Virus record (IMG/VR): IMGVR_UViG_3300029310_000108
Span: 1 to 7,396 of that record
Length of the DNA: 7,396 bases
Direction: 5' to 3' (one strand)
DNA from: a virus
Lineage: Duplodnaviria; Heunggongvirae; Uroviricota; Caudoviricetes
Shown: positions 1 to 7,396 of the stretch, in pieces
Layout of the letters: each line of letters starts with the position of its first letter
How positions within the stretch are numbered: the first letter of the stretch is position 1
Position numbers and translations under genes: made by a program
Notes under the pieces: model-generated
Database searches by the model: none
Seen by the model: the letters and a program-made list of their open reading frames with translations, nothing else
Told to the model about the DNA's origin: nothing

Positions 1-1446
1 GATAAATTAAGAGCTTTCGCAAATGAGAGAGCGAGAATTGTTCTTGGAGAACAGATAAGAGAAAAGTCAAAAGGTCGCAATCATGATTTATCGGTTATGG
101 AGTATAAGGTGTTAAAAGAGGAAATTCGTTACGACGAATTGAAGGAACAGGCTGATGAAAAGCAACAGGAGAATGAGCAGTTGGAGCGTGAAAAGAAACA
201 GCTTGTGCATGAGTATGATACTTTATACATGCGAGTAGCGGTTAAACAGCTGGATTATGAGGAAGCTGATGAACGAGTAAAAGAGGCAAATGGGCGAAAT
301 GCCGTGCGGCGATTGCAGAACAGGCCAAAGAAGAAGTTAAGGAAGTGGCAGATGGCGACTAAGAGCAATATTTATAAAGATCCGCGCTGGCTGTCGCTGG
401 TGGAGAAATATAAAGACAATTGGGTACTGGCAGCAAAAGAATTGTTTGATATTGATTTAAGCCACCAGCAACAACAAATTGTTGAAGCTATACAGCCCAA
501 TAATGCAAAAGCTACTGTCACCACTCCGTATGGGATCGGACGACCGCAAGTGCTTGCTGTTATTAGTACCCTTTATACGATTATGTATCCTGATTCCCGG
601 ACAGTAATTGTTTATCCAAAATCAAATGTTTGCAAAAGAGGAATTGTTGCATATGTGTGGCAATGTTGGGAGGCATTGCTGAAAAAACAACCTTTTATCA
701 TTGAGTATTTTAAGGTCGGTGATAGCGGTCTGATGTTCAATGAATTTTGGGGAATGTGCTTTTGTAACTACCGCCTTAACTATGAAGATAGCATTGCAGG
801 TCACTACGCCGACCATCTTTTATTCATTATTGTGGATTCCGCACATATCAGCGATCGGGCATACAGCATTGTGTGGGCAAGCATGACTAGTGGTGATTCA
901 CGCATATTGCTCACTTCAATTCCGTCACCAGAGGAAATAGGCTTTTTTTATGATTCACATCATGGACGTGCTTTAGCTGAAGATAATCCGAGTGGTGTAT
1001 ATAAAGCCATTAAGCTGAGTGCGGAGGATTCACCATTTATTACCCAAGAATATCTTGATCATTTTGCCGAAAGGTATGGCGGGCGAAATAGTGATGACTA
1101 TCGTCGTATGATTCTTGGTGAGTTCCCTGGTATTAGGGAGGCTGTTCTTGAATCAGATATGCCGAAGACAATGCGCTTTTCGATGCCTGATGGTAGTGAA
1201 TGGACAATGCCATTACGAGTGATAGCCCGGCATCATGCGCAGCACCACGCCAAAAAACATGGCGTCACGACATTAGAATGGTTGAAATCGCACACTATTC
1301 CACTCTTCACTGCAGATCACAATGCTATCGTTGAGTGGGCAAAAACAATTCCGTGGGAGCATGTCGCTGAATATGCTCACATGCTAAAACCGCCGAAAGA
1401 CAGGCACGAAATTAGCTGGCTGACAGCCGAAAAAATCATTGAATGA
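1..1446 (+). CDS. 5'-partial ORF: N-terminal coiled-coil segment followed by an ASCE-type ATPase-like core with terminase-large-subunit-like motif order; no nuclease domain; product uncertain
   Basis: Frame 1 is open from base 1: there is no stop before the first ATG at 97 and no Shine-Dalgarno in front of that ATG, so the gene probably starts upstream of the window. Stop TGA at 1444-1446. Motifs read from the translation: Q-rich LSHQQQQIVEAI, Walker-B-like LLFIIVDSAH, motif-III-like ILLTSIPSP, then RRMILGEFPG. The expected Walker A position (TTPYGIGRPQV) lacks GK[ST]. Family assignment is from remembered motif patterns only. Confidence 0.55.
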   Translation, partial: DKLRAFANERARIVLGEQIREKSKGRNHDLSVMEYKVLKEEIRYDELKEQADEKQQENEQLEREKKQLVHEYDTLYMRVAVKQLDYEEADERVKEANGRNAVRRLQNRPKKKLRKWQMATKSNIYKDPRWLSLVEKYKDNWVLAAKELFDIDLSHQQQQIVEAIQPNNAKATVTTPYGIGRPQVLAVISTLYTIMYPDSRTVIVYPKSNVCKRGIVAYVWQCWEALLKKQPFIIEYFKVGDSGLMFNEFWGMCFCNYRLNYEDSIAGHYADHLLFIIVDSAHISDRAYSIVWASMTSGDSRILLTSIPSPEEIGFFYDSHHGRALAEDNPSGVYKAIKLSAEDSPFITQEYLDHFAERYGGRNSDDYRRMILGEFPGIREAVLESDMPKTMRFSMPDGSEWTMPLRVIARHHAQHHAKKHGVTTLEWLKSHTIPLFTADHNAIVEWAKTIPWEHVAEYAHMLKPPKDRHEISWLTAEKIIE

Positions 1447-1453
1447 TATCAAC

Positions 1454-1486
1454 AAAAAGCCCGCCAGGTCTGGCGGGCTTCTTTAT
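1454..1486. terminator. Bidirectional rho-independent terminator between convergent genes
   Basis: GC-rich inverted repeat GCCCGCCAG / CTGGCGGGC (about 1459-1478) flanked by AAAAA on the left and CTTCTTTAT on the right. On the minus strand it reads as stem-loop followed by TTTTTGTTG. It sits between the stop of the plus ORF (1446) and the stop of the minus-strand humD-like gene (1492). Confidence 0.65.
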
Positions 1487-1491
1487 GCGCC

Positions 1492-1881
1492 TTAAATCAC
1501 AGGTCTATAATCAAACTCCCCACTTCGGGCATCATTAATGACATGAGTGATCACACCAAACACAGCATTACTGCCCGTGCATCCATCGTCATCTACTGGT
1601 AACGCCTCTTTCTTCCCGGTGCTTAAATCCTCCAGGTGCTGGCGCGGATACTTCCTGTATCTCTTTATGCGATATTCACCCTCCATAGCGCATATAAGCA
1701 GTGAACCATCAACCGGAGTAAGTGAGGAATCAACCACCAGCAAAGCACCTTGCAATATTCCCTCACGGTGATGGCTGTCTGCCGCCCGCATGAAGTAGGT
1801 CGCGGAAGGATGTCTGATTAGTTGCTGATCAAGAGAAATGCGGCTCTCTGCATAATCCGCCGCAGGAGAAGGGAAGCCCAT
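1492..1881 (-). CDS. humD: UmuD'-like S24 (LexA/UmuD family) protein, HumD-like; begins at the residue equivalent to the post-cleavage N-terminus of UmuD'
   Basis: 129-aa ORF with ATG at 1881 and GAGG 9 nt upstream. The translation [30 protein letters not shown]... closely follows E. coli UmuD from its Cys24/Gly25 cleavage site ([29 protein letters not shown]). The Ser (ADSHH) and Lys (EYRIKRYRK) at the UmuD active-site positions are present, and the C-terminal VFGVITHVI matches UmuD VFGVVIHVV. Recalled from memory, not searched. Confidence 0.85.
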   Translation of the reverse strand: [129 protein letters not shown]

Positions 1882-1899
1882 AGCGTTTTACCTCAATGA

Positions 1900-1919
1900 T
1901 ACTGTTTATTCATACAGTA
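1900..1919. promoter_or_regulatory. LexA (SOS) box, CTGT-N8-ACAG
   Basis: Plus strand tACTGTttattcatACAGta: CTGT at 1902-1905, 8-bp AT-rich spacer, ACAG at 1914-1917. This matches the E. coli LexA consensus TACTGT(AT)4ACAGTA. It lies 19-38 bp upstream of the humD-like start codon and overlaps the putative -10. Confidence 0.8.
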
Positions 1920-1945
1920 TACATTGAAAAGGCATAGTTTGTGAA
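1916..1945 (-). promoter_or_regulatory. Putative sigma70 promoter of the humD-like gene (-35 TTCACA, 18-bp spacer, -10 TATACT), with the -10 overlapped by the LexA box
   Basis: On the minus strand: TTCACA (plus 1940-1945), 18 bp, TATACT (plus 1916-1921). The -10 hexamer shares bases with the first half-site of the LexA box. Predicted by eye only. Confidence 0.45.
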
Positions 1946-2004
1946 AGCGGGGTTTGTAGGCGCGCCACGCTGGGGGCTAATCACATTTCTCCCCCATCTT
2001 GCCG

Positions 2005-2256
2005 TTATTTTTTTGGTGCATCCTCGTTCTGATACACCGGATCGCTCCCTTTTGGCAACTGGAGGCTTAACTTCCGGTAGTGCCGTAGCCGTTCCATGAA
2101 ATAGGCGCGCAGGTTTTCCGGTTGCTCACGGGCCACCTGCTCTGCAATCACAGGTATATTCAGCCGTTCTTTGTAAGCAACGCCGCTGGCGGCAAGGTCT
2201 ACGTTCACCTTGTCTCGCTCTTCCTGGCTTTTAGCTGCTATATTTCGATCTGACAC
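2005..2256 (-). CDS. hot: Homologue of DNA polymerase III theta subunit (HolE-like; phage P1 Hot-like)
   Basis: 83-aa ORF with a GTG start at 2256 preceded by AGGAGG and a 6-nt spacer. The translation ...[47 protein letters not shown]... matches E. coli theta (...[46 protein letters not shown]...) nearly residue for residue in the core. Recalled from memory. Confidence 0.85.
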
Positions 2257-2288
2257 AAGAAACCTCCTAGAGTTAGTGGATCAGGCAC

Positions 2289-2645
2289 ATGCACAATAAC
2301 GTTCTCAATGTTAGCCGTTCAATTCAGACAATCAGAGACTGCACCAGTGTGGTGGCATCAATCCCATTGCGAAATAGCATAGACGAACTGCAAATTCGTG
2401 TATTGAACCTGAATCATGCCAATGCAATTAAGCAATTGCGCTTTATTTTGACGCTTAAAAGTGAAGCAGAGGGGGTAAAGCACAGCGTAAAAGTGTTTTC
2501 TGAGGCCATCCTGCTTAATGGGAGGCTTCGGCATCTGGTGAGGCCAGAACGTCAATATCATGACGTCCTGGCTTGTGAAAAAGACCTTCTTTCTGAAGTT
2601 CAGGATAGGGTGATCGATTTCGTTAAATCTCATCCCCTGCATTGA
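2289..2645 (+). CDS. Possible antisense-oriented hypothetical protein (118 aa) in the gap between two minus-strand genes; coding status uncertain
   Basis: Only protein-like ORF in the roughly 370-bp space between the minus-strand genes at 2630-2914 and 2005-2256. The translation has helix-like periodicity and no low-complexity runs, whereas the overlapping minus-strand ORF 2358-2642 looks like a shadow ORF. Against it: weak ribosome-binding site (CAGGCAC before ATG), several AGG/AGA/ATA codons, only 32 bp to the divergent hot start, and a 16-bp convergent overlap with the neighbouring gene. Confidence 0.3.
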   Translation: MHNNVLNVSRSIQTIRDCTSVVASIPLRNSIDELQIRVLNLNHANAIKQLRFILTLKSEAEGVKHSVKVFSEAILLNGRLRHLVRPERQYHDVLACEKDLLSEVQDRVIDFVKSHPLH

Positions 2646-2914
2646 GGGCAGGTGTTACCTTCCGCAAAGTAGGGAAAGCTGCTATCAAGTTCATCGCACC
2701 ATCTGCGATGGTCGTAGCACCAAAAAGTCTCCCACGACAAACAAAAAGACTTCATCCACCGGGACACTCGGTCGGGTATATCTGCTGGTGGTCGCTCCTC
2801 TGGCAATAATTTACCTGATAATTCCCTTTCCGCCCGCGCCAGCATTCCTTTGAGGCTGGCATTCTCTTTTTCAAGAATCTCTACGCGCGCCTGTAACTCA
2901 GCTTTCGTTGGCAT
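2630..2914 (-). CDS. Hypothetical small protein (94 aa): N-terminal coiled-coil-like segment and a Cys/Trp-rich C-terminal tail ending in CPQC
   Basis: Minus-strand ORF; start chosen at ATG 2912-2914 (MPTKAELQARVEILEKEN...) because GAGG lies 6 nt upstream. Upstream in-frame ATGs at 2926 and 2986 lack a Shine-Dalgarno. Overlaps the stop of the upstream gene (2898) by 17 nt. Five Cys in the tail (C-x7-C-x6-C-x15-C-x2-C). Confidence 0.45.
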   Translation of the reverse strand: MPTKAELQARVEILEKENASLKGMLARAERELSGKLLPEERPPADIPDRVSRWMKSFCLSWETFWCYDHRRWCDELDSSFPYFAEGNTCPQCRG

Positions 2915-3662
2915 GGTCCGCCTCATGTTTATCAGCCACCAGCGGCAATAAAGCCTTCGCCATTTCATGAACCAACATGGCATCAATGACGCCTAGCGTA
3001 TGGCCCGGCTTAATCTTTAATGCGGCCTCAAGATAGCCTCTTTCCAGAGTGGTTTTTACGCTTTTCCTGGGCGCTTGTTGGGAACTATCCGGAAAATCCG
3101 GATGGTTGCCAGCCTCATAAGCTACCCGCAACCAGTGCATGAATGTTTCCGCAGACACACAACCGCAGTCCACATCGATTTTCCCGCGCTGCTGCTCCAG
3201 CCATTGCTCAAAATCTAACTTGTAAGCCTTACTTTCAAGTTCATCACCATTGAACTCGACTTGCTGCGACGCTATGAGAGCGGCTTCGTATTGTTCGTGA
3301 GTGACAACTGACTGGTATTCATCGCTATCAAGGTCATGAATTGGAAGCTCAATCTCAAAACAAAAATTGCGCCCATCGAACTGGTCTTTTTTGCAGTCTG
3401 AGCCAAAAGCAAAAGTCGCGCATGGCACCATTAAATTGGCACTGAGCAGGCGACAATCGATCATACCATAAGGCCATCCGCCGCGCTTAGGCAACTCCTT
3501 CACTAACAAGTCGATCAGCTTCATTGTTTTACCATCTTTGCAAGTCGCCAAAGCCATTTGGGCAAGCTCCAATACCTCATCTGCCGTGTATCCAGCGCCG
3601 TGTCCATACATTTCGATGCGTGCAATAATCTCTGATATGCGAAATTTAGTGATTTTAGTCAT
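2898..3662 (-). CDS. Hypothetical protein (254 aa; 260 aa if the in-frame ATG at 3680 is used), Cys-containing, no family recognised
   Basis: Longest ORF in the array. ATG 3660-3662 overlaps the TGA stop of the upstream small gene as ATGA (MTKITKFRISEII...). An alternative in-frame ATG at 3678-3680 has AAGG 6 nt upstream. Stop TGA at 2898-2900. Seven Cys including VDCGC. Confidence 0.7.
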   Translation of the reverse strand: MTKITKFRISEIIARIEMYGHGAGYTADEVLELAQMALATCKDGKTMKLIDLLVKELPKRGGWPYGMIDCRLLSANLMVPCATFAFGSDCKKDQFDGRNFCFEIELPIHDLDSDEYQSVVTHEQYEAALIASQQVEFNGDELESKAYKLDFEQWLEQQRGKIDVDCGCVSAETFMHWLRVAYEAGNHPDFPDSSQQAPRKSVKTTLERGYLEAALKIKPGHTLGVIDAMLVHEMAKALLPLVADKHEADHANES

Positions 3663-3868
3663 AGTTTTATTTCCTTGCATGGTTCGCCTTTACGGCATAC
3701 GGCTACACGGTCATTTCTTACATTAACCACTGTCACCGTTCCGTCATCACATTGAATAACGATGAAAGGGTGTTCATTCTCTTTTGTGCAATGTTGCTGT
3801 TCTCCAGCCATTGCAGCCGGAGGATCAAATAGCGCCAGAACAAATGCCAACCTTAAAAAATGCTTCAT
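3659..3868 (-). CDS. Small secreted protein (69 aa) with predicted Sec signal peptide and four Cys in the roughly 47-aa mature part
   Basis: ATG at 3866-3868 with AAGG 4 nt upstream. N-terminus MKHFLRLAFVLALFDPPAAMA has a basic n-region, a hydrophobic core and an AxA-type cleavage site. Mature region GEQQHCTKENEHPFIVIQCDDGTVTVVNVRNDRVAVCRKGEPCKEIKL. Stop overlaps the next gene's start (ATGA). Confidence 0.6.
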   Translation of the reverse strand: MKHFLRLAFVLALFDPPAAMAGEQQHCTKENEHPFIVIQCDDGTVTVVNVRNDRVAVCRKGEPCKEIKL

Positions 3869-3875
3869 TTGGCCT

Positions 3876-3928
3876 TATCCGTTATCAAAATTGGAATATC
3901 CGTTATCACGAGCGTGATATCCGTTATG
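3876..3928. repeat. Three direct repeats of (A/T)TATCCGTTAT(C/G) at 21-bp phasing, with a 6-2-6 inverted repeat between copies 2 and 3; putative operator or iteron-like protein-binding array
   Basis: TATCCGTTATC at 3876-3886 and 3897-3907, TATCCGTTATG at 3918-3928. Inverted repeat ATCACG-AG-CGTGAT at 3905-3918. The array begins 8 bp upstream of the start codon of the gene at 3659-3868. Confidence 0.65.
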
Positions 3929-4081
3929 AAGTGGGGAATAAGACCACTTACCAATACCCTCCGCCTGACTCAAAGTTGGCGATAAGCCAGGCTGCGAAAA
4001 GAGTAACCCCTGCTCCAAAAACTCGACCGCATCAAAATCAAATACGGCTTAGCGGAATAGCACCAGCAGACCCACGCACTG

Positions 4082-4091
4082 NNNNNNNNNN
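4082..4091. other. Assembly gap (run of 10 N)
   Basis: Literal nnnnnnnnnn in the sequence; true length and content unknown. It lies in a roughly 320-bp non-coding interval between two minus-strand genes. Confidence 0.97.
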
Positions 4092-4192
4092 ACACCCCAC
4101 CGTACCCCATTTAACACCACCAGCTAATAAAATAAATAAACCGCAAAGGCATACAAACAAAAAAGTAATCCAAAATTTCTTTCTGTTTTTCA

Positions 4193-4486
4193 TTATGGTT
4201 GACTCCAGTTATCTTCAATAACAATACTTAACCTCTGAAGCCATTCTGCTAATTTCAGCATGGCTTCTCTTTCGCTTAAACCACGCGGAAAATCATCAAG
4301 CGAAATTGTTGGCTTGAAGTTCCCCGAATTATCCATTTCAACGGTCAGATTTTGCTCCAGCACGGTATTCCTTACGCGGCTATTGTGCCGAAGCAAATAT
4401 ACTGAGCGTGATTTATTGGTTTTGTGGTCGAGCTGATATTCGGTAAGTATCATCTGGCTTCCACCATGATTATTACCGCGCCACAT
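4193..4486 (-). CDS. Hypothetical protein (97 aa), no family recognised
   Basis: ATG at 4484-4486 preceded by GGAG and a 5-nt spacer; stop TAA at 4193-4195. Follows the upstream gene's stop by 12 nt. Translation MWRGNNHGGSQMILTEYQLDHK... Confidence 0.55.
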   Translation of the reverse strand: MWRGNNHGGSQMILTEYQLDHKTNKSRSVYLLRHNSRVRNTVLEQNLTVEMDNSGNFKPTISLDDFPRGLSEREAMLKLAEWLQRLSIVIEDNWSQP

Positions 4487-4498
4487 AATTACTCCGTG

Positions 4499-4927
4499 TT
4501 AATAAGAGAAATAGACCGTTGCAACACTGTTATATTGGTCGAACGAAATAGCATTTACTTCATAGCTGGTGGGCAGCTTCTTACCAAGAATGTAGCCAGG
4601 CCATGAGTTCCACGGAATTTCTGTTCGGTCGTCGTCTTGCCACATTACGCAACCAAGAGAGCCAACCATTTCACCATATCGCTTGCCACAAGTAACAAAG
4701 CCTATATTCGGTTTTGATTGTGTGACTGATACCGTGGTGGTGTTTGCGGAAGCATTGGTTGCAGCACGCCGCGCTTGCTCGCTGGCGATAGAAGCATTTA
4801 CTGCCGCCGTGGTCGCCGCTGTTGCCGCCGCTGTTGCCGCCGCTCCAGCGGCAATAACTGACGCGTGGGATAAATGACTGGCTGATAACATAGCCAGAAA
4901 AATAATAGCTCTTTGAAATTTAGCCAT
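4499..4927 (-). CDS. Secreted protein (142 aa): signal peptide, Ala/Thr-rich low-complexity linker, and a roughly 70-aa C-terminal domain with two Cys
   Basis: ATG at 4925-4927 with AAGGTG upstream. N-terminus MAKFQRAIIFLAMLSASHLSHA is signal-peptide-like. The linker AAGAAATAAATAATTAA is encoded by a GCN-rich 12-bp tandem repeat. C-terminal domain ...GFVTCGKRYGEMVGSLGCVMWQDDD... Confidence 0.7.
   Translation of the reverse strand: MAKFQRAIIFLAMLSASHLSHASVIAAGAAATAAATAATTAAVNASIASEQARRAATNASANTTTVSVTQSKPNIGFVTCGKRYGEMVGSLGCVMWQDDDRTEIPWNSWPGYILGKKLPTSYEVNAISFDQYNSVATVYFSY
4803..4845. repeat. About 3.5 tandem copies of a 12-bp unit (GCCGCTGTTGCC) inside the secreted-protein gene
   Basis: Plus strand gccgccgtggtc (4803-4814), gccgctgttgcc (4815-4826), gccgctgttgcc (4827-4838), gccgctc (4839-4845). 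It encodes the Ala/Thr-rich linker on the minus strand. Confidence 0.85.
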
Positions 4928-5201
4928 TGATATTCACCTTTATCGCGTACACCTTTACCGGTTTATCACCGAAGTGCGGATGTGTGATTGTCTTGATTTC
5001 ATATCCGTTATACGGGACGTCTATTCTGCGACTGGAATCGTCGCGCTTCGGATATCCCTTTGTGATAATCAGGCGGTCATATTCCCGGAACATGATTCGC
5101 TTATTCCAGTAGCCATTACACAAGCGATACTCTTCCGTTTTCTCTCCGCGAATCATGGCATCGAAGTATTCACCTTTGACGGCAAGTTGCAGGTTAGCCA
5201 C
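4920..5201 (-). CDS. ASCH-domain-like (PUA-like fold, DUF3850-type) small protein
   Basis: 93-aa ORF with a GTG start at 5199-5201 preceded by AGGAGG and a 6-nt spacer. Translation MANLQLAVKGEYFDAMIRGEKTEEYRLCNGYWNKRIMFREYDRLIITKGY... follows the remembered ASCH/DUF3850 pattern (..L.V.PEYF.A...G.KT.E.R.ND..F..GD.L.L.E..). Start overlaps the upstream stop and the stop overlaps the next start, both as TGGCTAA. Confidence 0.7.
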   Translation of the reverse strand: MANLQLAVKGEYFDAMIRGEKTEEYRLCNGYWNKRIMFREYDRLIITKGYPKRDDSSRRIDVPYNGYEIKTITHPHFGDKPVKVYAIKVNING

Positions 5202-5742
5202 GGTTAACCTCCTGCGGCGGCTCTGGTAGTGGCATCCAGTACAAGGCGTTCCCTAACCACGATAAAGTGCCGTCGCTCAACTCCACGTATTCCCCTTGTA
5301 CCTGTCCTGCCATATACTCGCCGTGCTTTGAATAAATTAAAATCCAATCATCTTGAGGGGGCATTCGCTCACTACAGCTTATCCAACCATCCGGAGTTAC
5401 CGGATAGTTGCCATTCACAAGGTCAGCTCGAACATATAGCGTGTCATCATGGTGCTGATTGTGGCTGCACCACGTTAATTCGCTTAACTCGCCATCTTCT
5501 GGCCATACTCCAGCCGTTTGCAGCCAGATATGGGCTGGCGCATCTTGGCAAGGTGTATTAACTGGCAACTTGTAAGTTTGGCTTACAGGTTCTGCACTAT
5601 CAGCTTCGCGCCGCTTCTGTAGCTCTGCTGCCATCGCTCTCACGACTTCAACTGGTGCCCTTGCAGCAAACTCTATGTTGGTGATCAGCTCATTAAGATA
5701 TTGCTCGCTGGGATACTGTTTCTTATTGGTAATAGTGGTCAT
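5194..5742 (-). CDS. Phage-type protein with DUF551-like C-terminal domain (182 aa)
   Basis: ATG at 5740-5742 preceded by AAAGGAGAGTGAT, coupled to the upstream stop as TGAtATG. The C-terminal region WISCSERMPPQDDWILIY...YWMPLPEPP matches the remembered DUF551 hallmark (W...HWMPLP.PP) seen in lambdoid prophage proteins. Confidence 0.75.
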   Translation of the reverse strand: MTTITNKKQYPSEQYLNELITNIEFAARAPVEVVRAMAAELQKRREADSAEPVSQTYKLPVNTPCQDAPAHIWLQTAGVWPEDGELSELTWCSHNQHHDDTLYVRADLVNGNYPVTPDGWISCSERMPPQDDWILIYSKHGEYMAGQVQGEYVELSDGTLSWLGNALYWMPLPEPPQEVNRG

Positions 5743-5743
5743 A

Positions 5744-6166
5744 TCACTCTCCTTTCCCCTTAAGCATGGCAGCACGGCAGGCATTCCAGCCTCTCACCTC
5801 TGCAATAGCGGCAACAGCATCAACCGCGTACATGCTAAGAGGGTTAGGCATTGGTTTTTCTTCCGGCACTACAGGCACTGGCGGTGCGGTATAAAACTTC
5901 GTCCCCAGCGGCAACAACTTCATCGCTTTTTCTCCCTTAATGATGCGATAAGTTGATTTCTCACCAAGATATACCGTTCCATCCATAACAAGGCCATGTC
6001 GCTGCTCTGAAACTTCACCAATAGCCTCTGCTTCCAGCGATGCCAGCGCGATACGAAACACATTGGCAAGCAGGCTGTCTGAAGATTGGTTATCGTGCGC
6101 CGGGTCGCTCAGGAAGCCTGTGATGAATGATTTAATCTCCGCACGTTCTTTGGTAATAGTGGTCAT
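5744..6166 (-). CDS. Hypothetical protein (140 aa) sharing its first five or six codons (MTTIT) with the downstream DUF551-like gene
   Basis: ATG at 6164-6166 with AAGGA 7 nt upstream; stop TGA at 5744-5746, 1 nt before the next ATG. The first 17 nt of coding sequence are identical to the next gene. Confidence 0.65.
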   Translation of the reverse strand: MTTITKERAEIKSFITGFLSDPAHDNQSSDSLLANVFRIALASLEAEAIGEVSEQRHGLVMDGTVYLGEKSTYRIIKGEKAMKLLPLGTKFYTAPPVPVVPEEKPMPNPLSMYAVDAVAAIAEVRGWNACRAAMLKGKGE

Positions 6167-6176
6167 GTGTTAGTCC

Positions 6177-6932
6177 TTAAACTGCCAGTTGCAATTGCAT
6201 TTCAAAGCGGTCGCGTTGTTCACAATACGCAAGAGAACCAGGGCTATTGTGTGCCTCAATCCGTTCTACCATTAATGCTGCGCGTGTCTCTTTACTTGCA
6301 GGTGCATAAGCCCCAGACCAGGCTTTATCAATACCGATGTTTCGAGCGACGTTCGTACTATCTGCGCTGGCTAAGGGTAATTTTGTGAATATCAGCGGAT
6401 TTAACATGCGCAACCCATGTAGTTTCGTAACCGGCTGACCATACTCATCAACAATGTGACGAATCAGGTCTTTCATTCTGGCTACCGCAAGAGTTGGGCG
6501 CTTTACGTCATAGTCGCCACAACTACCGATAGCCACTCGCGGAAACTCATTGCACAAATGAATAAATCGCTCGTCACTTTCATTCATGTGCCACACTGGA
6601 ACGCCAGCTAGTTTTCCGTGAGGCCACTCATTCAGAAGCGCATCATTTTCCTCCTCTCCGCCATCAATAACATCCGGGATAATGGCAAAATCGAATCCTG
6701 GGTGATTCTTCCAGCGAGCAACAAACTCGTAGTAATCGCTCCAGTCGATTTTGTTTTTGCCAGCTGCTTTCCAGGCGGTGAATGCACCGTTGTCCAGCGC
6801 GAACGACTGACAGTATTCAGCCGCGAGATTGATCTGGCCTGAATGCGCAAAACTGATAAACGCATGTCGCCCTTTCCATGCTCTCATTGCGCACGTATCA
6901 GGAGTAATAGGCCCACCGTGGTAGTGAATCAT
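6177..6932 (-). CDS. tRNA-guanine-transglycosylase-fold protein, minimal TIM-barrel core (DpdA-like candidate DNA 7-deazaguanine transglycosylase)
   Basis: 251-aa ORF; ATG at 6930-6932 preceded by AAGGAG and a 6-nt spacer, coupled to the upstream stop (TGAgATG). Motif correspondences with E. coli Tgt: SFAHSG ~ GNTFHL; ALDNGAFTAW ~ LTDSGGFQVF; RVAIGSCGD ~ YAVGGLAVGE; ASADSTNVARNIG ~ DMFDCVMPTRNARNG. It lacks the C-terminal CxCxxC...H zinc subdomain and the N-terminal roughly 50 aa of tRNA-TGTs. Recalled from memory, not searched. Confidence 0.7.
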   Translation of the reverse strand: MIHYHGGPITPDTCAMRAWKGRHAFISFAHSGQINLAAEYCQSFALDNGAFTAWKAAGKNKIDWSDYYEFVARWKNHPGFDFAIIPDVIDGGEEENDALLNEWPHGKLAGVPVWHMNESDERFIHLCNEFPRVAIGSCGDYDVKRPTLAVARMKDLIRHIVDEYGQPVTKLHGLRMLNPLIFTKLPLASADSTNVARNIGIDKAWSGAYAPASKETRAALMVERIEAHNSPGSLAYCEQRDRFEMQLQLAV

Positions 6933-6933
6933 C

Positions 6934-7396
6934 TCACTCTCCTTTGATGCGAATGCCAGCGGCGCGTGGCACATTAACTTCCACGATGCGCACTGTTGGT
7001 TTGTACATCTCAATCGCTGTCAGCCAGTCAGCTCCTGTCATGCGCTTTTCCGCATCGCCATTAGTCCACTGAACCGGTACACCAATAGCCTTCATCGCGA
7101 TTTCTATTTCCCCGGCAATGGCGCTTTTTCCGCAACCAGTAAAACCAGATACAACGACCAGAACTTCACCTTTGGCTGGTTTTATTCCCCGCGCTTCCAG
7201 TTCTGCTATGCGCTTACTTCCATCCGAGATAACACCTTCGTAATACTCACGCTGCTCGTTGAGTTTTGATTTTGCTGTTTCAAGCTCAACACGCAGTTTC
7301 CCTACTGTTAGCGCAATATCCTCGTTCTCCTGGTCGCGGCGTTTGATGTATTGCTGGTTTCTTTCCCGTTCATCCAGCAGTTCCAGCACAATCGAT
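6934..7396 (-). CDS. 5'-partial ORF (start beyond the right window edge): coiled-coil region followed by a Walker A motif (GFTGCGKS) close to the C-terminus; function unknown
   Basis: Reading frame is open to the window edge: the codons at 7390-7395 are in frame with no stop, and the GTG at 7387-7389 is only the first in-frame start inside the window. Stop TGA at 6934-6936. Translation ...RVELETAKSKLNEQREYYEG...GEVLVVVSGFTGCGKSAIAGEIEIAMK... Only about 50 aa follow the P-loop. Confidence 0.65.
   Translation of the reverse strand, partial: SIVLELLDERERNQQYIKRRDQENEDIALTVGKLRVELETAKSKLNEQREYYEGVISDGSKRIAELEARGIKPAKGEVLVVVSGFTGCGKSAIAGEIEIAMKAIGVPVQWTNGDAEKRMTGADWLTAIEMYKPTVRIVEVNVPRAAGIRIKGE

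Follow-up and report, generated by a model that had tools for sequence, protein, structure and literature searches.

A solo DpdA-like transglycosylase gene in the mosaic accessory DNA of a P1/D6-like phage-plasmid

What does the short leftward gene at positions 6177–6932 of the viral record IMGVR_UViG_3300029310_000108 encode, and does its product act on the DNA of the element that carries it? The stretch analysed here, called the window, comprises positions 1 to 7,396 of that record and forms an accessory region, mosaic in composition, of a P1/D6-like phage-plasmid. An earlier note, made from the letters alone, had read the gene as a minimal, DpdA-like enzyme with the fold of tRNA-guanine transglycosylase (TGT), which could act on the element's own DNA, perhaps together with non-canonical partners. 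Our analyses assign the gene to the phage DpdA family, and within it to the gammaproteobacterial 'DpdA-only' clade, whose products are minimal TIM-barrel enzymes of about 250 amino acids (aa) related to TGT. We consider it fairly probable that the enzyme inserts a host-made 7-deazaguanine sparsely into the DNA of the element. The earlier interpretation was therefore sound as to the family and failed as to a new variant with novel partners.

The open reading frame (ORF) on the minus strand extends over 6177–7013 and gives 278 aa if read from a TTG codon, or 251 aa if read from the ATG at 6932. As the homologues begin with MIHYHGG and are about 250 aa long, 6177–6932 (minus strand) is the correct extent of the gene, which we refer to as dpdA: a solo, zinc-less homologue of the TGT-fold DNA guanine transglycosylases. 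The ORF is real and under selection, since 7847 of the 8000 candidates scored are homologues at E ≤ 1e-3, the family forms 814 clusters at 50% identity, and copies are present in 204 of 5426 complete Escherichia coli genomes.

The family assignment rests on several comparisons. The 251-aa protein matched PHROG 887, 'queuine tRNA-ribosyltransferase', at E = 6e-103, and tblastn found relatives in 107 phage records, with identities of 93% to BTP1 and SPN3UB, 68% to SfI, 36% to HK106, 36% to phage 7-11 (E = 3e-24) and 38% to MED16 (E = 2e-34). An alignment of 55 diverse family members, with a mean identity of 31%, was used for profile–profile comparison and matched the DpdA of phage CAjan with 98.9% probability. 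Against a profile of 30 DpdA1 sequences the family scored 99.1% probability in hhalign (E = 1.1e-18, 173 columns), and the motifs of our family and of DpdA1 pair in order as LDNGAF/LDSGAF, IDG/LDG, PVWH/PCFH, AIGS/TLGG, KLHG/KVHG and SADST/SCDSS. The predicted fold is the TGT-type (beta/alpha)8 TIM barrel, and the AlphaFold2 model built from the diverse alignment reached a predicted local distance difference test (pLDDT) score of 95.8; it superseded a mediocre first model from a narrow alignment (pLDDT 72.6). Phage Epa33 (47% identity), considered as a closer validated relative, is temperate, belongs to the Hollowayvirus group rather than to the iggy-type Queuovirinae, and has the gene alone.

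Several searches returned nothing. The 251-aa protein had no match in Pfam (including the TGT family PF01702), NCBIfam or PADLOC, and none of the 55 family members matched Pfam or PADLOC, whose DpdA model was included. Sequence searches of the PDB were likewise negative, both with phmmer for the protein and with hmmsearch for three increasingly broad profiles, and hhalign gave no match to E. coli Tgt, for which one sequence was used. Membership is not weakened by these negatives, because CAjan DpdA, whose activity is experimentally validated, is also without a match in the library and PDB searches. Of the searches that the earlier note had proposed, Pfam is silent and the top Foldseek matches are generic barrels; homology to phage DpdA is significant by hhalign, tblastn and PHROG 887.

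The motifs by which the protein had been lined up with TGT exist in both proteins: LDNGAFT (46), RVAIGSCGD (132) and DSTNVARN (191) in the 251-aa protein, and TDSGGFQ at 88, GGLAVGE at 213 and DCVMPTR at 264 in E. coli Tgt, which moreover carries the zinc motif CDCYTC at 302. In the 55-member alignment D47, H172, D191 and S192 are invariant, and at most three of the 55 members depart from D87, H115, N96, E118 or G136. When DpdA1 sequences, whose identity to our protein is below 21%, were aligned jointly with the family, D47, A50, H115, H172, D191 and S192 stayed invariant.

The predicted active site can be placed on these positions. D47 (codon 6792–6794, minus strand; LDNGAF motif) is the predicted general acid/base and aligns with the invariant D63 of DpdA1; D191 (6360–6362, minus strand; SADST motif) is the predicted catalytic nucleophile and aligns with the invariant D206. 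H172 (6417–6419, minus strand; KLHG motif), aligned with DpdA1 H187, is the predicted hydrogen-bond partner of the nucleophile, and the 19-residue spacing between H172 and D191 would resemble that of the H226/D248 pair of Cap10. H115 (6588–6590, minus strand; PVWH motif) is a predicted base contact, kept in 54 of the 55 members and aligned with DpdA1 H132. In bacterial DpdA, D95 acts as general acid/base with F99 four residues on, D256 is the nucleophile, and alanine at D95 or D256 abolishes guanine exchange. By motif order, D47-x3-F51 and D191 would be the equivalents of bacterial DpdA D95 (with its D-x3-F pattern) and D256, and of D89 and D264 in Tgt. The two Asp residues on whose conservation the earlier note had staked its reading are thus both invariant.

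One part of the barrel differs. The invariant D105 of DpdA1 aligns with D90 of our protein, which is kept in 32 of the 55 members and replaced by Gly or Glu in many, while D87, three positions before it, is retained in 54 (residues 87–90, mid-barrel Asp region, 6662–6674, minus strand, from the family alignment). Since it is D87 and not the D105-aligned D90 that is conserved, the base pocket may be built slightly differently, with the base-recognition Asp shifted by three residues relative to the validated DpdA1. Such a shift, as read from the alignment, could give a different base or target specificity.

The lack of a zinc-binding tail and of the N-terminal tRNA-contacting region, both noticed earlier, was borne out. 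The CxCxxC motif is absent from the 251-aa protein and from its family, and none of the protein's five cysteines is conserved among the 55 members, so the family has no zinc site. As the DpdA proteins of CAjan, 7-11 and MED16 also have none, and nor does Cap10, a zinc site does not define the phage branch. The N-terminal lid of Tgt is absent as well.

The pathway that we consider fairly probable would begin with expression from the leftward operon described below. In duplex DNA, D191 would attack a deoxyguanosine at C1' and guanine would be released, with D47 serving as general acid/base; a 7-deazaguanine from the host queuosine pathway, either 7-cyano-7-deazaguanine (preQ0) or a close derivative that ends as dADG (2'-deoxy-7-amido-7-deazaguanosine), would then resolve the covalent intermediate. 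The outcome would be sparse, probably motif-specific 7-deazaguanine marks on the DNA of the element, made after replication. We infer the DNA substrate, the inserted base and any biological benefit in this scheme; its most likely function is to place preQ0-derived bases of host origin in DNA at a low level. Use of a host-made 7-deazaguanine is feasible, because the DpdA of phage 9g alone in E. coli inserts about 790 2'-deoxy-preQ0 (dPreQ0) per 10^6 nucleotides (nt) and because insertion by DpdA2 of phage nt-1 is lost in a queD mutant. Phage DpdA1 and DpdA2 thus need no partner in E. coli, whereas bacterial DpdA depends on DpdB. In mycobacteriophage Orion no modification was found, and its host makes no preQ0. 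As the earlier note had stated, queC, queD, queE and folE are absent from the 7.4-kb window; moreover, no preQ0 gene was present among the immediate-neighbour clusters of 80 related viral loci or in the annotated flanks of phages BTP1, 7-11, MED16, Epa33, Phc and K396.

The gene lies in a tightly packed leftward string at 4193–7396 (minus strand), delimited from ORFs, junctions and family scans, in the order Ea22-like gene (partial), dpdA, 140-aa gene, DUF551 gene, ASCH-like gene, 142-aa gene and 97-aa gene. The TGA of the upstream gene occupies 6934–6936 and is separated by a single base from the dpdA ATG; the dpdA stop codon is TAA, and the next gene starts 10 nt on. A Shine–Dalgarno sequence, AAAGGAGAG, read directly at 6937–6945 (minus strand), sits within the 3' end of the upstream gene, with a spacer of 6 nt between its AGGAG core and the ATG. 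No leftward promoter-like site was found within 4193–7396, and a terminator-like hairpin lies at 4048–4026, past the last gene of the string. The description of a translationally coupled operon with a strong ribosome-binding site is accurate, given these junctions, AAAGGAGAG, the lack of an internal leftward promoter-like site and the hairpin after the string. Between the operon end and the region to its left, ten N (4082–4091) mark an assembly gap or masked bases, and the ORFs across them contain XXXX.

The gene upstream of dpdA is the ORF at 6934–7396 (minus strand), which is partial, as had been noticed, and runs off the window edge. It combines an Ea22-like coiled-coil N-terminus with an 86-aa C-terminal module (6937–7194, minus strand) that carries the Walker-A-like sequence GFTGCGKS, gives a weak match to adenosine 5'-phosphosulfate kinase (E = 0.029) and matches PHROGs 250 and 11761, both of unknown function. 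Could this P-loop protein and the downstream genes be accessory subunits of a multi-component DNA-modification system, analogous to the DpdB ATPase, as the earlier note had suggested? Bacterial DpdA does depend on DpdB, and the P-loop-like module ends 1 nt ahead of the dpdA start codon. Nevertheless, we regard such a system as very improbable in view of the neighbourhood counts, which were made for 80 viral loci with 82–100% identical DpdA and supplemented by six annotated distant phages. Of the 80 loci, none has the P-loop module, 13 have the Ea22 N-terminal part, 7 the 140-aa gene, 18 the DUF551 gene and 4 the ASCH-like gene. The immediate upstream neighbours fall into 17 clusters (Ea22-like, DnaB-like, DnaC-like, methyltransferase, repressor-like and others) and the immediate downstream ones into 27 (EaA-type, RusA and others), without a ParB-like DpdB among the neighbours. 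Furthermore, the module itself is present in 21 phage records, among them phiV10, D6, JL22 and jumbo phages of Burkholderia and Ralstonia, and nearly all of these records lack dpdA; the gene is also solo in the distant relatives 7-11, MED16, Epa33, Phc and K396, and the independent activity of 9g DpdA1 and nt-1 DpdA2 argues in the same direction. The partner idea was rejected on this co-occurrence evidence, and dpdA is a self-contained cassette without a conserved partner. Just as improbable is a generic TIM-barrel enzyme without kinship to TGT or DpdA, its motifs resembling theirs by chance: Foldseek does place tryptophan synthase alpha and other generic barrels on top, and Pfam and PDB are without a sequence match, against which stand the profile matches and the shared invariant residues described above.

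Two further explanations keep an active enzyme and change what it acts on or what it is for. The acceptor may be other than DNA, either a protein-linked 7-deazaguanine, as for Cap10, or host tRNA, through which the host would be rewired; we think this unlikely. The homology found by hhalign points to phage DpdA1 and not to Cap10 or TGT, the window and the neighbours in the 80 loci hold neither a Cap9/QueC-like gene nor a cGAS/DncV-like nucleotidyltransferase (CD-NTase), and the tRNA-binding lid and zinc subdomain are missing; moreover, phages 7-11 and MED16 do carry dADG in their DNA. The amounts in those two phages bear on the benefit. Per 10^6 nt, phage 7-11 contains 50 dADG (about 0.02% of G) and MED16 contains 354 (about 0.13% of G); enzymes whose sites include G cut MED16 DNA normally. 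By analogy with these relatives, a protective, anti-restriction role appears doubtful, since modification at 0.02–0.13% is too sparse to block restriction and MED16 is unprotected. A benefit other than protection of the element's own DNA has therefore been weighed, namely interference with host processes that depend on 7-deazaguanine precursors (Dpd, type IV CBASS, that is, the cyclic-oligonucleotide-based antiphage signalling system, and Qat), or rare marks for regulation or packaging. In its favour, the gene's surroundings in the early-left region are accessory and host-takeover genes, as in BTP1, where ral, abc1/abc2 and kil lie beside it, and QueC- and TGT-like defence systems exist. It is nonetheless speculative, and the catalytic residues for a full base exchange are strictly conserved, which a simple precursor sink would not need; we rate it as rather unlikely, slightly below the non-DNA acceptor. 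It is likewise a tentative and unlikely idea, on a par with that acceptor, that the mini-DpdA clade, found in temperate enterobacterial phages and in phage-plasmids, does not serve bulk anti-restriction and instead sets rare, site-specific dADG-type marks from host precursors, or uses a Cap10-like non-DNA acceptor, with a regulatory, packaging or anti-defence role. Sparse insertion of a host-made base into the element's DNA remains the reading we prefer. The searched literature yielded no experiments on BTP1-type or prophage DpdA, or on any member of the enterobacterial clade of more than 60% identity.

Some neighbours of more distant homologues deserve mention. A 696-aa C-5 cytosine methylase lies directly downstream of the homologue in Epa33 (locus 7740–9830), and adenine methyltransferases lie next to or near the homologues in Phc (8828–9541), MED16 (4136–4783) and one IMG/VR locus (1845–2552), which hints at a loose DNA-modification neighbourhood. 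The homologue of Vibrio phage K396 is longer (339 aa; locus 6449–7468) and has structural genes for head and tail around it and a tRNA gene after it, a context very unlike the early-region cassette of enterobacterial phages.

Identical dpdA genes elsewhere follow Ea22 genes with other C-termini, which indicates a recombination junction inside Ea22. As a cassette of one gene it moves among lambdoid and P22-like phages, in their accessory (ea/nin) regions, and it is mostly a chromosomal prophage gene: its 218 places in the 5426 E. coli genomes are 213 chromosomal and 5 plasmid ones, and four plasmid records carry it. The record OR850331.1, 'Staphylococcus phage SA 1298 Kay' (1719 bp), encodes a protein 92.8% identical to this enterobacterial DpdA and is probably mislabelled or contaminated.

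As for the setting, the window holds humD at 1492–1881 (NCBIfam HumD, E = 1e-62) and hot-like, Ea22-like, DUF551 and ASCH-like genes. Over its whole length it matches best to the phages RCS47, D6, SJ46 and P1 and to E. coli plasmids of some 90 kb for which non-mobilizability is predicted; none of these covers more than 63% of the window. A 449-aa ORF at 97–1446 (plus strand) matched PHROG 5902 (E = 2e-164) and contains a segment with weak likeness to the terminase large subunit; roughly the first 65 residues of the ORF form a highly acidic coiled coil with a weak match to the DNA mimic Ocr (E = 0.012). The plasmid and D6 matches all begin only at window position 292, so the N-terminal extension of this ORF is not common to them. 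A 69-aa ORF at 3659–3868 (minus strand) and the 142-aa Ala/Thr-rich ORF at 4499–4927 (minus strand; PHROG 8805) have signal-peptide-like N-termini, and may be morons of the phage-plasmid whose products are secreted or are lipoproteins.

These results do not reveal a new system, as phage RefSeq and PHROGs already label the family 'queuine tRNA-ribosyltransferase'. The NCBI annotation can be improved, since the same gene is a 'hypothetical protein' in all 204 E. coli genomes that carry it. What DpdA-only phages gain from the enzyme is an acknowledged question of the field, and the clean single-gene cassette makes it easily testable, being carried by P1-like plasmids, BTP1 and lambdoid prophages, all amenable to genetics.

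Among the known systems, bacterial Tgt (E. coli, Zymomonas mobilis) is a protein of 375 aa whose beta-sheet lid at the N-terminus and tRNA-binding zinc subdomain (CxCxxC...H) are both absent here, and no sequence-profile match to it was found. Cap10 of type IV CBASS (PDB 9NTN) showed no detectable sequence-level similarity, and it acts on a protein-linked 7-amido-7-deazaguanine together with Cap9 and a CD-NTase, genes of a kind that do not accompany ours. The bacterial DpdA of the Dpd system (Salmonella Montevideo, PDB 7UI4) is larger, at about 413 aa; it has a structural zinc site and four insertions, one of them Ins8 with 128 residues, none of which our protein has. It requires the DpdB ATPase and lies in the dpdA–K cluster, whereas the gene described here is without these and without a match to the PADLOC DpdA model or to NCBIfam.

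The DpdA1 enzymes of the Queuovirinae (Escherichia phages CAjan and 9g), which are experimentally validated preQ0 DNA transglycosylases, share with our protein a homologous core of about 175 residues and the invariant D, H, H, D and S, and neither group has CxCxxC. However, the identity is only about 18–20%, DpdA1 has 306 aa with another N-terminus and a longer C-terminal region, and the conserved mid-barrel Asp of our clade is D87 and not the D105-aligned position. DpdA1 moreover adjoins folE, queD, queE and queC and replaces 25–32% of G, whereas our clade is solo; the preQ0/G+ clusters (groups 1–2 of Hutinet et al. 2019) are set apart by those four genes, optionally joined by gat-queC, arcS or queF; the 7.4-kb window lacks the four.

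The closest counterparts are the DpdA-only phages. Hutinet et al. (2019) described a third group of 76 phages that encode DpdA without the rest of the pathway and suggested reliance on host preQ0; their tables list BTP1 SIU02687, SPN3UB YP_007011024, SfI YP_009147480, HK106 YP_007151699, SEN1 and 7-11 as DpdA-only. Of these, BTP1, SPN3UB, SEN1 and 7-11 are Salmonella phages, SfI is a Shigella phage and HK106 a coliphage. Pantoea phage MED16, another solo-DpdA phage, was described in 2021. The subfamily has therefore been catalogued since 2019 and the gene is not new; the proposal of a short DpdA as a new variant with non-canonical partners does not hold, as the 93% identical BTP1 protein was already listed and there is no conserved partner. 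These phages share with our element the solo gene of about 250 aa and the lack of phage preQ0 genes, at identities of 93% (BTP1, SPN3UB), 68% (SfI) and 36–38% (HK106, 7-11, MED16), and BTP1 has the same module in its early-left operon: an Ea22-like gene, dpdA, then eaA and ASCH genes. Two differences stand beside these likenesses: the Ea22 upstream of dpdA here has a distinct, P-loop-like C-terminal module, and the cassette is carried by a P1/D6-like phage-plasmid and not by a chromosomal lambdoid prophage. The presence of dpdA on a P1-like phage-plasmid is the sole, modest addition to the known picture.
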